A DNA stretch of 64,000 nt, taken from assembly GCA_938084885.1 (NCBI GenBank), contig CALKGG010000119.1, forward strand, positions 10,393 to 74,392, in the 5' to 3' direction. This DNA comes from an uncultured Acidimicrobiales bacterium (GTDB lineage Bacteria; Actinomycetota; Acidimicrobiia; Acidimicrobiales; SHLQ01). The stretch's first letter is position 1. The number at the start of each line of letters is the position of its first letter. The notes beneath the pieces were generated by a model. It did no database searches and was not told the origin of the DNA. It saw nothing but the letters and a program-made list of their open reading frames with translations. Position numbers and translations under genes: made by a program. This document shows positions 21,725 to 23,578 of this stretch, in pieces.

Positions 21725-22690
21725 TCAGGCGTCCTGGGAGGTACTTGCTTGGCGGAGGATGGCGAGTTCTTCCCCGAGTTTGGCTTCGGTCATTGCCGAG
21801 CGGGCTGCCGACGACGTTTGCAACACAACGTTGACGATGCGGGTGGGATCCATAAGGGTGGGCCCCATCGACCGGGCTTCTTCAATGGACGGTTCGAGCA
21901 GCAGCACTCTCTGGCCCGCGCGTCGAAGGTCGGCCACTTCTCGCTGCACTTGGTTGCGCCAGTAGAGGCGGAGGGCGCCGTTGGTGGTCATCCAACCCGT
22001 GGCGATGTTGTCGACCGACATGGGCGCGACAATCACGATGAGATCGAGATCCCGGCCCGCGAGGAGATCGGCGTTTGTTGGCGAGTGTGTGCCCCCGTCG
22101 ACGTAGCGGAACCCGCCGATGGTGACGGGTTTGAAGTATCCGGGAATCGCCGAGCTCGCTTCGACTGCGGTGCCGACATCGACATCGGTTCGGTCGAGGC
22201 CGAACACGACGCGTTCGCTGTCGTGCAGTCGCACGGTCGTGAGTAACAATTCGTTTTCGGGCCATGTATCACCATGTAGTTCGATCATTCGATCGCCGAT
22301 GGTGTCGGTGCGGATGTTGCCGTTGGGGAGCAGGCCGGAAACGAGGCGGCTTGGGCGCATGAATGGACCGCGGGCTGCTTCGCGTGCGGCCATCTTGAGT
22401 GAGGTCGGTAGGAGTCGAACCGTACGGTCAGCTTCTCTGCCGCTGAGCACCCGAAGCCGTTCCATGGAGCGAGGGTTGGCTGGCAACGTCATGATGTCGT
22501 CGAGGGACTCGCCGATTGGTGTGCCGCCCCGGAGGAAGCCACCGATGTTCGAACCGGCCGACGTTCCAACGATCACCGAGGCGTCGCGGGGGTCCCAGCC
22601 GGTGATCTGCTGCAGAACGGACAGCGTGGTGGTGAGATACGCGAATCCAGCAATACCGCCGCCGCCTAGTACGAGCCCGATCTTTGTCAC
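21725..22690 (-). CDS. patatin-like phospholipase/lipase
   Basis: It has the oxyanion GGGGIAG motif, the GTSAGS nucleophile elbow (GxSxG) and a later DGG motif (YVDGGTHSPTNADL). Its GTG start overlaps the XRE stop in a GTGA overlap. Confidence 0.85.
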   Translation of the reverse strand: MTKIGLVLGGGGIAGFAYLTTTLSVLQQITGWDPRDASVIVGTSAGSNIGGFLRGGTPIGESLDDIMTLPANPRSMERLRVLSGREADRTVRLLPTSLKMAAREAARGPFMRPSRLVSGLLPNGNIRTDTIGDRMIELHGDTWPENELLLTTVRLHDSERVVFGLDRTDVDVGTAVEASSAIPGYFKPVTIGGFRYVDGGTHSPTNADLLAGRDLDLIVIVAPMSVDNIATGWMTTNGALRLYWRNQVQREVADLRRAGQRVLLLEPSIEEARSMGPTLMDPTRIVNVVLQTSSAARSAMTEAKLGEELAILRQASTSQDA

Positions 22691-23043
22691 GAGCCCACCT
22701 TGCCGGTGAAGCCCTTGTAGATCTCGAGCATTGCGGCCTTTTGCGAATCGGTCAGCGCTGGGTCGCGTTTGATTGCGGCTTCGGTGGATATCTCTGCTGT
22801 GTCTTCGTTCAGTTCTTCACCGAGCATGCCGAGCATGGTTTCGACCGGCACGTTGAGTGCTTTGCCGAGCGCTCGAAGGACACGTACGGAAGGCTCGTGC
22901 AGTCCACGCTCGAGCTGGCTCACGTATGGGTCAGAGAGCGCAGTGAGCTTTGCGAGCTCTCGTTGTGAGAGCTGTGCGAGGCGGCGTTGTGAGCGGATGA
23001 ACGAGCCGAGATCCAGCAAGTGGCTGCGGTCGTCGTTACCCAT
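22687..23043 (-). CDS. XRE-family helix-turn-helix transcriptional regulator
   Basis: The HTH_3 signature is LGSFIRSQRRLAQLSQRELAKLTALSDPYVSQLERGLHEPSVRVLRALGKAL. A strong SD (GAAGGAGAAGT) lies directly upstream of the ATG at 23043. Confidence 0.8.
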   Translation of the reverse strand: MGNDDRSHLLDLGSFIRSQRRLAQLSQRELAKLTALSDPYVSQLERGLHEPSVRVLRALGKALNVPVETMLGMLGEELNEDTAEISTEAAIKRDPALTDSQKAAMLEIYKGFTGKVGS

Positions 23044-23119
23044 ACTTCTCCTTCGGCAATCTGCTCTGACCCATGAGTCGAGTCGAGGGGCGAGTCCTCA
23101 GAGTAGGACTCGTGGAGCG

Positions 23120-23578
23120 CTACGCCTTCTTGGCCGTGCTCTTGTTTGTTGGCGCGTTCTTGGCGGTTGCCTTTGCGGTGCTCTTCTTGGCGGTCGTCTT
23201 CTTTGGTGCCGCCTTCTTTGCGGTGGTCTCGATGACGGTCGCAGCGTCGTCTGCATTGTCGGTGAACCGGTTGATGACCTTCATGGTGAAGTTGCGGTTG
23301 GCTTCGATTCCCTTGCCAAGAAAGTTGAAGTAGGCATCGACGGCTTCGAGTGGCTCTGGAAGCTCGATCTCGGGGAGCTTGTCGGCGAGCGGAAGCTCGA
23401 CGTCGGAGATGGCGTTGGTGATCTTGTCGGCGTAGGGGAACGTGACGTCTGCGTCCTGGATCTTGGTGACGAGGTTCTTGGTGGCGCCGTGTGCTTTGTC
23501 GTTGGTGCTGACGGCGACGTCGAAGAACTTGTCGGAGGCTTCGGTGATCTGGTCGGTGAGTTGTTCAAGAACTGGCAT
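23120..23578 (-). CDS. Lys/Ala/Thr-rich-tailed small protein, HbhA/TadA/MLDS-like (candidate lipid-body coat / DNA-binding protein)
   Basis: The 152-aa protein has a helical-looking N-terminal part. Its C-terminal tail is TTAKKAAPKKTTAKKSTAKATAKNAPTNKSTAKKA. An SD (GAGGGAAG) lies upstream of the ATG at 23578. Its genomic context is WS/DGAT and lipase genes. Confidence 0.55.
   Translation of the reverse strand: MPVLEQLTDQITEASDKFFDVAVSTNDKAHGATKNLVTKIQDADVTFPYADKITNAISDVELPLADKLPEIELPEPLEAVDAYFNFLGKGIEANRNFTMKVINRFTDNADDAATVIETTAKKAAPKKTTAKKSTAKATAKNAPTNKSTAKKA

Follow-up and report, generated by a model that had tools for sequence, protein, structure and literature searches.

A Lys-tailed small protein and an MLDSR-type regulator as a candidate lipid-droplet coat and regulator module of Acidimicrobiia

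Is the small, Lys-tailed protein encoded next to an XRE-type regulator in an uncultured, marine-type Acidimicrobiales bacterium a coat protein of lipid droplets? The question is raised by a stretch of 64,000 nt (contig CALKGG010000119.1, positions 10,393 to 74,392; hereafter the window), in which the gene for a 152-aa protein is followed by a regulator gene and by genes for a patatin-like lipase and a wax ester synthase/diacylglycerol acyltransferase (WS/DGAT). The initial annotation of this locus had likened the small protein to MLDS, TadA and HbhA of Rhodococcus and Mycobacterium and had proposed that the two genes encode an equivalent coat protein and its regulator. We propose, with a probability of roughly 55%, that the pair is the functional counterpart in Acidimicrobiia of the droplet coat and regulator modules represented by MLDS/MLDSR and by HbhA with its neighbouring XRE protein. 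Its position in a lipid cluster, the acidic body and Lys-rich tail of the small protein and the kinship of the regulator with MLDSR together suggest that this is probably a new version of the coat-plus-regulator pair, with a coat protein unrelated in sequence.

All genes of the region are located on the minus strand. Those of the predicted operon are, in the order of transcription:

23120-23578, minus strand: open reading frame (ORF) of the small protein, 152 aa, ending in TTAKKAAPKKTTAKKSTAKATAKNAPTNKSTAKKA
22687-23043, minus strand: XRE regulator gene of the MLDSR/Rv0474 type, 118 aa, with an HTH_3 match and similarity to MLDSR
21725-22690, minus strand: patatin-like lipase (Pfam)
20391-21722, minus strand: WS/DGAT acyltransferase, at the end of the inferred operon (Pfam and NCBIfam)

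The Shine-Dalgarno (SD) sequence of the small-protein gene, GAGGGAAG (23593-23586), lies 7 nt 5' of its ATG, and that of the XRE gene, GAAGGAG (23048-23054), lies 4 nt 5' of its ATG, the two genes being separated by a 76-nt spacer. The GTG start codon of the patatin gene overlaps the XRE stop codon by 4 nt (GTGA, 22687-22690), and the patatin stop is placed 2 nt ahead of the ATG of the WS/DGAT gene (21722), in agreement with the coupling of these three genes that had been noticed before. The 35-aa Lys-rich tail, both SD sequences and the XRE gene reported in the initial annotation were found in place as well, and the assignments of the enzymes and of the helix-turn-helix (HTH) protein were confirmed by Pfam and NCBIfam. 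The window contains a single MLDSR-type regulator and a single member of the small-protein family.

The XRE protein matched the HTH models HTH_3 (E=7.9e-12) and HTH_31 (E=1.6e-11) at residues 11-68. It shares 43% identity with MLDSR (RHA1_ro02105) over 103 aa (E=1e-24) and 45% with the XRE protein whose gene immediately precedes hbhA in M. haemophilum (E=4e-28), the mycobacterial gene at this place being presumably Rv0474. The similarity extends past the HTH into a C-terminal helix (D.A.T..QK..L.IY..F), and the C-terminal part alone gave E=3e-6. An alignment of regulators from Acidimicrobiia and Mycobacteriales includes 32 invariant columns. The conserved C-terminal motif of the regulators probably corresponds to alpha-6, as drawn from primer-defined truncation boundaries. 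The MLDSR and MLDS sequences were taken from the R. jostii-like locus L045, which was found by searching metagenomes for the published operator 20-mer and whose genes agree with the primer-derived mldsr/mlds peptides (PMC5504291 supplement). Judged by its sequence, the XRE protein is a member of the MLDSR/Rv0474 regulator family. For MLDSR, binding to operator and promoter and sequestration by droplets have been described (PMC5504291). The window regulator resembles it from end to end, the C-terminal helix beyond the HTH included, and likewise has a Lys-tailed small protein as partner. However, it is shorter (118 aa vs 135-168 aa in MLDSR and the mycobacterial proteins) and misses the acidic C-terminal extension. 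Unlike that of MLDSR, its gene is the second of the operon, and the coupling extends to genes of a lipase and an acyltransferase.

The succession of a small gene and an XRE gene would also be that of a toxin-antitoxin or mobile-element XRE module with the toxin first, as in HigB-HigA, and the XRE protein did produce weak NCBIfam matches to the Y4mF/HipB antitoxin models (E=3e-6, far below cutoff). We regard this explanation as very improbable, given that the full-length regulator shares 43-45% identity with MLDSR/Rv0474 and that the pair has a stable chromosomal position with translational coupling to metabolic genes. Moreover, neither Pfam nor NCBIfam assigned the small protein to a toxin family (type II toxin-antitoxin, HigBA-like), and the protein combines an acidic, helical character with a tail of low complexity.

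The conservation of the pair was followed in 19 loci, namely the window, 15 close relatives (L001-L015) and three distant ones (L053-L055). The small-protein gene is followed by an MLDSR-type XRE gene in all 19. Searches by tblastn with the window proteins recovered the order HAD-acyltransferase, WS/DGAT, small protein, XRE, patatin, WS/DGAT in 15/15 close loci, at protein identities of 40-85%; some of these loci carry an extra acyltransferase and an acyl-CoA synthetase before the small protein. GpsA is found nearby in 12 of the 15, and most close loci encode alpha/beta hydrolase and/or GpsA homologues on the opposite strand. An apparent fusion ORF of small protein and XRE in L003 was rejected as an artefact of masked N bases. 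Directly downstream of the distant members P0342, P0381 and P0392 (28-32% identity) lies, in each case, an XRE gene encoding 120-132 aa. Since these distant members keep only the pair, the small protein and the XRE protein constitute the conserved unit, and the placement in a fat-storage operon is specific to the subfamily of the window.

The enzymatic part of this neighbourhood has been described before. The cluster of WS/DGAT, HAD-AGPAT, acyl-CoA synthetase and AGPAT reported for Acidimicrobiia (PMC10351704) is the same neighbourhood in the same taxa, including Ilumatobacter, and the HAD-acyltransferase/WS/DGAT arrangement is part of that report. The words XRE, patatin and 'transcriptional regulator' are absent from its text, and the small protein is not named in the cluster as described there.

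Homologues of the small protein numbered 60 with a single-sequence query and at least 383 with a profile of N-terminal domains, from which we conclude that the gene is real. Except for two evident mis-annotations, homologues with a functional name are called 'hypothetical protein', and an exact look-up of the 152-aa protein returned no name. Named organisms were mostly Ilumatobacter, Ilumatobacteraceae or Acidimicrobiales, and a scan of species-representative genomes yielded 14 loci, 12 of them in metagenome-assembled genomes of Acidimicrobiales/Acidimicrobiia. No family was assigned to the small protein by Pfam (E<=0.01) or NCBIfam, and the best match of a PDB sequence search had E=0.69. The protein is composed of two parts:

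23228-23578, minus strand: acidic helical domain, residues 1-117, net charge -12, pI 4.3
23120-23227, minus strand: disordered Lys/Ala/Thr tail, residues 118-152 and stop codon, net charge +11, pI 11

The 35 tail residues comprise 31% K, 29% A, 23% T and 6% P, with the repeat TAKK. The same two-part design is found in the droplet-associated proteins: the N-domain of MLDS (231 aa) has a net charge of -21, a pI of 4.4 and a maximal hydrophobic moment of 0.56 and is followed by a tail of +10, and that of HbhA (158 aa) has a net charge of -10, a pI of 4.7 and a moment of 0.54 with a tail of +15. The corresponding moment of the window protein, whose N-domain spans 117 aa, is 0.59, a value matched by 31 of 1000 shuffles. 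AlphaFold predicted helices at residues 2-42, 50-59 and 76-107 and a disordered tail (predicted local distance difference test, pLDDT, <50). Two runs gave a pLDDT of 56 and 52 and a predicted template modelling score of 0.31 and 0.19, with no globular fold. Across the family the long helices are joined by PxAD(K/R)L repeats of variable copy number, and a basic tail is present in 131/144 members. The tail ranges from about 12 to about 90 residues and is rarely lost, as in P0036 (111 aa; L011, 3550-3885), which has an acidic end instead and whose stop codon overlaps the XRE start.

TadA and MLDS (RHA1_ro02104) are orthologues, and both are homologues of HbhA (Rv0475). HbhA and TadA are involved in the formation of lipid inclusions (PMC6176652). 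In BLASTP the small protein gave E=15 against HbhA and E=0.32 against MLDS, compared to E=6e-45 for the positive control HbhA against MLDS. For profile comparison an HbhA/TadA profile was built from 30 diverse representatives found by a representative-library search; a search with an HbhA query had returned, among the 120 matches listed, only mycobacterial HbhA and no TadA or MLDS. When the N-domains were compared by hhalign without tails, the probability was 0.5% with the 60-sequence profile and 1.0% with the 114-sequence profile, level with the reversed-sequence controls (1.4% and 1.2%, respectively). The remote homology for which this check had been proposed was thus not detected. A full-length match with a probability of 92% was rejected, since the N-domains alone score like the reversed control; it covers just 16 columns at the junction to the tail and is an effect of composition. 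In a greedy alignment (probability 1%) the motifs 'ELP' and 'A..Y..(F/L)..(K/R)G(I/E)E' are colinear in both families, which we take as a hint that a very distant homology is conceivable and not as evidence for it. Real HbhA itself matched no specific NCBIfam model, so the NCBIfam negative is no test against HbhA.

Lacking detectable N-domain homology, the small protein is not a member of the HbhA/TadA/MLDS family; on the grounds of these comparisons it is at most an analogue, or a relative diverged past recognition. The resemblance noticed in the initial annotation therefore survives as a likeness of design, in the form of an acidic-helix body with a basic tail, and fails as homology. Of the equivalence proposed there, the regulator half stands, the XRE protein being a relative of MLDSR, and the coat half shows no detectable homology to HbhA, TadA or MLDS. 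The likeness to MLDS/TadA/HbhA consists of a small, presumably cytosolic protein with an acidic, amphipathic, all-helical N-terminal part and a basic Lys/Ala-rich tail of 35-45 residues, of a gene that adjoins an XRE regulator of one family, and of a link to neutral-lipid storage, which in the window runs through the predicted co-transcription with patatin and WS/DGAT. In contrast, the window protein is shorter (152 aa vs 199-276 aa), contains a linker of PxAD(K/R)L repeats, which include proline and vary in number, as well as a tail rich in Thr (TAKK) rather than in Pro (PAKKA), and belongs to Acidimicrobiia instead of Mycobacteriales, the hosts of the Rhodococcus and Mycobacterium systems. 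By analogy, the small protein is a candidate functional analogue from a new, unnamed family of Acidimicrobiia.

A basic tail of this kind may also indicate a nucleoid-associated, histone-H1-like protein under the control of its own XRE regulator, for which the position in a lipid cluster would be incidental or purely regulatory. The tail resembles DNA-binding tails of the H1/Hc2 type, and many relatives have a PF07382 (HC2) match, although these are precomputed matches only, marked as weak for P0342, and the window protein itself did not match this model in Pfam at E<=0.01. Furthermore, distant members and their XRE genes are found among unrelated genes (FTHFS, MFS, PNP, MetH, GGDEF), and the small protein has no detectable homology to proven droplet proteins. 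Nevertheless, we consider a nucleoid function unlikely. What the family conserves is the acidic helical domain rather than the tail, which varies in length from about 12 to about 90 residues and is missing in rare members. The N-domain has a net charge of -12, and no DNA-binding fold was found in it. The predicted co-transcription with patatin and WS/DGAT is kept in 15/15 close loci at 40-85% identity, and the partner regulator comes from a family shown to associate with droplets.

The promoter region upstream of the small-protein gene points to a dedicated regulatory site. It includes the following predicted elements:

23697-23714, minus strand: putative operator box 1, TGCAAAGTAAAGTACGCA (TGC-N12-GCA), upstream of the -35
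23685-23690, minus strand: -35-like hexamer TTGCAA, 16 nt from TAAAGT, a predicted promoter element
23658-23675, minus strand: putative operator box 2, TGCGAAGTAAAGTACGCA, containing the -10-like TAAAGT (23663-23668)
23579-23657, minus strand: predicted 5' leader, from a putative transcription start, comprising the SD (23586-23593) and two stem-loops

The two boxes are the only matches within 64 kb at <=3 mismatches (0.00 expected). Paired 18-bp TGC-N12-GCA boxes, 39-40 bp apart, were found in 17/19 loci, and the remaining two have box 2 and a variant of box 1. In 15/15 close loci the box occurs exactly twice and solely at this promoter. Box 2 has the consensus TGCGTAGTAAAGTACGCA, a 6-6-6 palindrome of which each position is shared by 14-17 of 17 loci, and a TTG is placed 15 nt ahead of it in 17/17 paired-box loci. 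Reading TTGNNN-16 nt-TAAAGT as -35 and -10 implies that box 2 covers the -10 and that box 1 lies upstream of the -35. The repeats at 23658-23715 pointed out initially are real and constitute a strongly conserved, putative paired operator. As the boxes are conserved across loci whose proteins are just 28% identical, their conservation argues strongly for a cis-regulatory site, and the adjacent XRE protein is probably the factor that binds them. The operator core of Rhodococcus MLDSR, TGCTTGCAATTGCTAGCA, has the same 18-bp TGC-N12-GCA frame as the window boxes. The leader stem-loops differ in sequence in nearly every locus among L001-L015, and the structure of the window's leader as a whole is not significant (z -1.05).

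Just 5' of box 1 a GTGAC(N)GATGT motif (about 23716-23727, minus strand) is present in 12/15 close loci. Written as TGTGA-N6-TTGCA, it looks like one half of a site of the CRP/GlxR type and would in that case point to a second regulator.

Between the small-protein and XRE genes the transcript is predicted to fold into a hairpin:

23091-23112, minus strand: stem-loop with an 8-bp stem and a 6-nt loop

The 7-bp hairpin of the initial annotation, with the arms gagtcct/aggactc at 23092-23098 and 23105-23111, is present 8 nt past the stop codon of the small-protein gene and gains a C-G pair (23091/23112). Folded alone it has a free energy of -13.1 kcal/mol (z -3.9), and none of 200 shuffles was as good. 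Because the whole 76-nt spacer compared to shuffles had no excess structure (z -0.7), the hairpin within the window alone goes only modestly beyond chance, and comparative data carry the argument. A hairpin is found at this position in 11/19 loci. The closest relatives with a readable spacer, L002 and L004, keep the stem, with a change of C-G to a U-G wobble in L002 and a compensatory change of A-U to G-C in L004. L003, L005, L006, L009, L010, L053, L054 and L055 carry strong hairpins of unrelated sequence, and seven of these eight spacers gave z -2.6 to -5.2 when folded (L009 is near-identical to L006). Two further loci have weak hairpins, five with spacers of 19-35 nt have none, and in one locus the genes overlap. 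An Rfam scan of 22500-24100 returned no match. The occurrence in some relatives with unrelated sequences and the absence from others imply a recurrent but optional RNA structure, which fits a tuning of the ratio of coat protein to regulator.

The inverted repeat may alternatively be a chance palindrome or a DNA operator without function as an RNA element. This is compatible with the z-score of the whole spacer, the missing U-tract, the five relatives without any hairpin and the length of 20-22 bp, which is close to the size of the MLDSR operator. However, the structure recurs (z -2.6 to -5.2) where the sequence is unconserved beyond the closest relatives, and the changes in L002 and L004 keep RNA pairing, while the wobble in L002 would break a DNA palindrome. 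The repeat also does not have the TGC/GCA frame of the operators. We therefore doubt this explanation, while granting it an appreciable minority chance.

In L003 the spacer (8628-8774) comprises a strong GC hairpin and then three tandem 23-nt repeats, each capable of forming a hairpin; the coding region of the Lys tail is masked with N in this record.

The strict pairing of the two genes in 19/19 loci, even without lipid genes nearby, would equally be expected if the small protein mainly modulated the XRE protein, as an anti-repressor or co-regulator titrating it, rather than serving as a coat. In Rhodococcus the amount of MLDSR on droplets shifts upon deletion of MLDS, which may be read in the same way. 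There is, however, no sign that the two proteins touch each other directly; the stem-loops of the leader and the hairpin after the gene suit an abundant product better than a stoichiometric partner, and the design of amphipathic helices plus basic tail fits binding to a surface. A role confined to the modulation of the regulator appears distinctly unlikely to us.

Taken as a droplet coat and regulator module, the pair would work as follows. One promoter (-35 TTGCAA, -10 TAAAGT) would drive the genes of the small protein, the XRE regulator, patatin and WS/DGAT. The regulator, probably as an oligomer, would bind both 18-bp boxes and thereby autoregulate the operon, while the small protein would coat neutral-lipid inclusions through its acidic amphipathic helices, leaving the basic tail free for polyanions such as DNA. 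By analogy with MLDSR, the droplets may sequester the regulator, which would tie the expression of coat protein, lipase and acyltransferase to the droplet surface area. The stem-loop would probably increase the amount of coat protein relative to regulator and enzymes, through either partial termination or protection of the 3'-end of a short transcript.

Comparable arrangements are known from other storage inclusions. Phasins and perilipin/apolipoprotein-like proteins are likewise amphipathic-helix surface proteins, often with a dedicated regulator, and in PhaP/PhaR this regulator is titrated by the granule. Phasin systems differ from the window pair in their regulator family. No phasin or apolipoprotein model of Pfam matched the small protein, and no polyhydroxyalkanoate genes are found near the pair, whose neighbours are triacylglycerol and wax-ester genes.

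Several observations weigh against the proposed module. In addition to the negative BLASTP and N-domain comparisons with HbhA and MLDS, the small-protein gene is located upstream of the regulator gene in the window, and the coat gene downstream of it in Rhodococcus and Mycobacterium. The loci of P0342, P0381 and P0392 have no lipid genes nearby, and the link to lipid consequently derives from the context of one subfamily and from analogy. At the operator, the box sequence is TGCGTAGTAAAGTACGCA in Acidimicrobiia and TGCTTGCAATTGCTAGCA in Rhodococcus, and the window boxes lie on either side of the -35 at a distance of 39-40 bp, whereas the Rhodococcus motifs are adjacent. The window hairpin has no U-tract, and the weak structure of its spacer as a whole and the loci without a hairpin count on the same side.

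The variation among partners of MLDSR-type regulators was also apparent outside Acidimicrobiia. The 20-mer of Rhodococcus operator motif 1, GTGCTTGCAATTGCTAGCAC, was found as an exact match in 35 metagenome contigs (L018-L052), and in at least 27 of them an MLDSR-type XRE gene adjoins the operator; the 20-mer was absent from the M. haemophilum locus (L016) at <=3 mismatches. Many of the MLDSR-type genes are followed by HbhA/TadA-like genes. In L018, L024, L033, L035, L041 and L043, proteins of 156-201 aa adjoin the MLDSR-type regulators; in these, a W(R/K)xSF(R/T/A)P junction connects an acidic helical body to a Lys/Ala/Pro tail. Profile comparison revealed no detectable relation of these partners to the HbhA profile (3%) or to the Acidimicrobiia family (0.3%). 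L044 encodes a protein with the same body and junction as these partners and a non-basic end.

At least three partner families without mutually detectable homology accompany these regulators, namely HbhA/TadA/MLDS, the 156-201-aa partners encoded beside the exact Rhodococcus operator in other actinobacterial contigs and the family from Acidimicrobiia, and the regulator and the design of its partner seem steadier than the partner sequence. We tentatively extend this to the idea, which we hold to be possible rather than probable, that MLDSR-type regulators mark a droplet-surface module of actinobacteria in which regulator and partner design persist while the N-domain of the partner has been replaced or has diverged past recognition several times, and to which the wiring in Acidimicrobiia would add direct feedback, through sequestration of the regulator on droplets, on lipase and WS/DGAT as well as on the coat protein.

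We know of no droplet-surface protein of Acidimicrobiia. A family of 'hypothetical proteins' thereby becomes a concrete candidate for this role, and the predicted promoter, the two-box operator and a regulator of a characterised type make the circuit directly testable. In one study of coastal sediments from Antarctic and Subantarctic sites, Acidimicrobiia such as Ilumatobacter made up an abundant share of the WS/DGAT carriers; they have several WS/DGAT genes, and the study names no droplet-surface protein for them (PMC10351704). If the proposed module is confirmed, droplet coat proteins would be better recognised by their architecture and conserved regulator than by their sequence, which would change genome searches for bacterial coat proteins. 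It would also join feedback of the MLDSR type to enzymes of both fat synthesis and fat breakdown, a link so far undescribed.

Upstream of the operator, the window contains a further lipid operon and a palindrome:

25322-26752, minus strand: HAD-acyltransferase fusion, first gene of the upstream operon (Pfam and NCBIfam)
23892-25325, minus strand: WS/DGAT of the upstream operon, its start overlapped by the HAD-acyltransferase stop (Pfam and NCBIfam)
23756-23806: palindrome of about 41 nt (core GGGGTCAGACCCC; on the minus strand CTACCGGCGTTTTTGGGGTCTGACCCCAAATCTGCCGGTAG), between the upstream WS/DGAT and the operator

The upstream WS/DGAT and small-protein genes are separated by a 313-nt gap. 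A partial copy of the palindrome at 23867-23900 overlaps the stop codon of the upstream WS/DGAT gene, and the palindrome core GGGGTCWGACCCC occurs only at these two sites within 64 kb. L007 carries a similar palindrome core at the same position. The full-length palindrome of the window probably serves to terminate transcription of the upstream operon.

Beyond the last WS/DGAT gene, a 315-aa protein is encoded at 19447-20394 on the plus strand, with only weak similarity to alpha/beta-hydrolases (PGAP1-like). It is present in 7/15 close loci (L002, L003, L004, L007, L008, L011 and the window's own), its gene being located between the last WS/DGAT and GpsA where both flanks are present, and may represent another lipase of this cluster.

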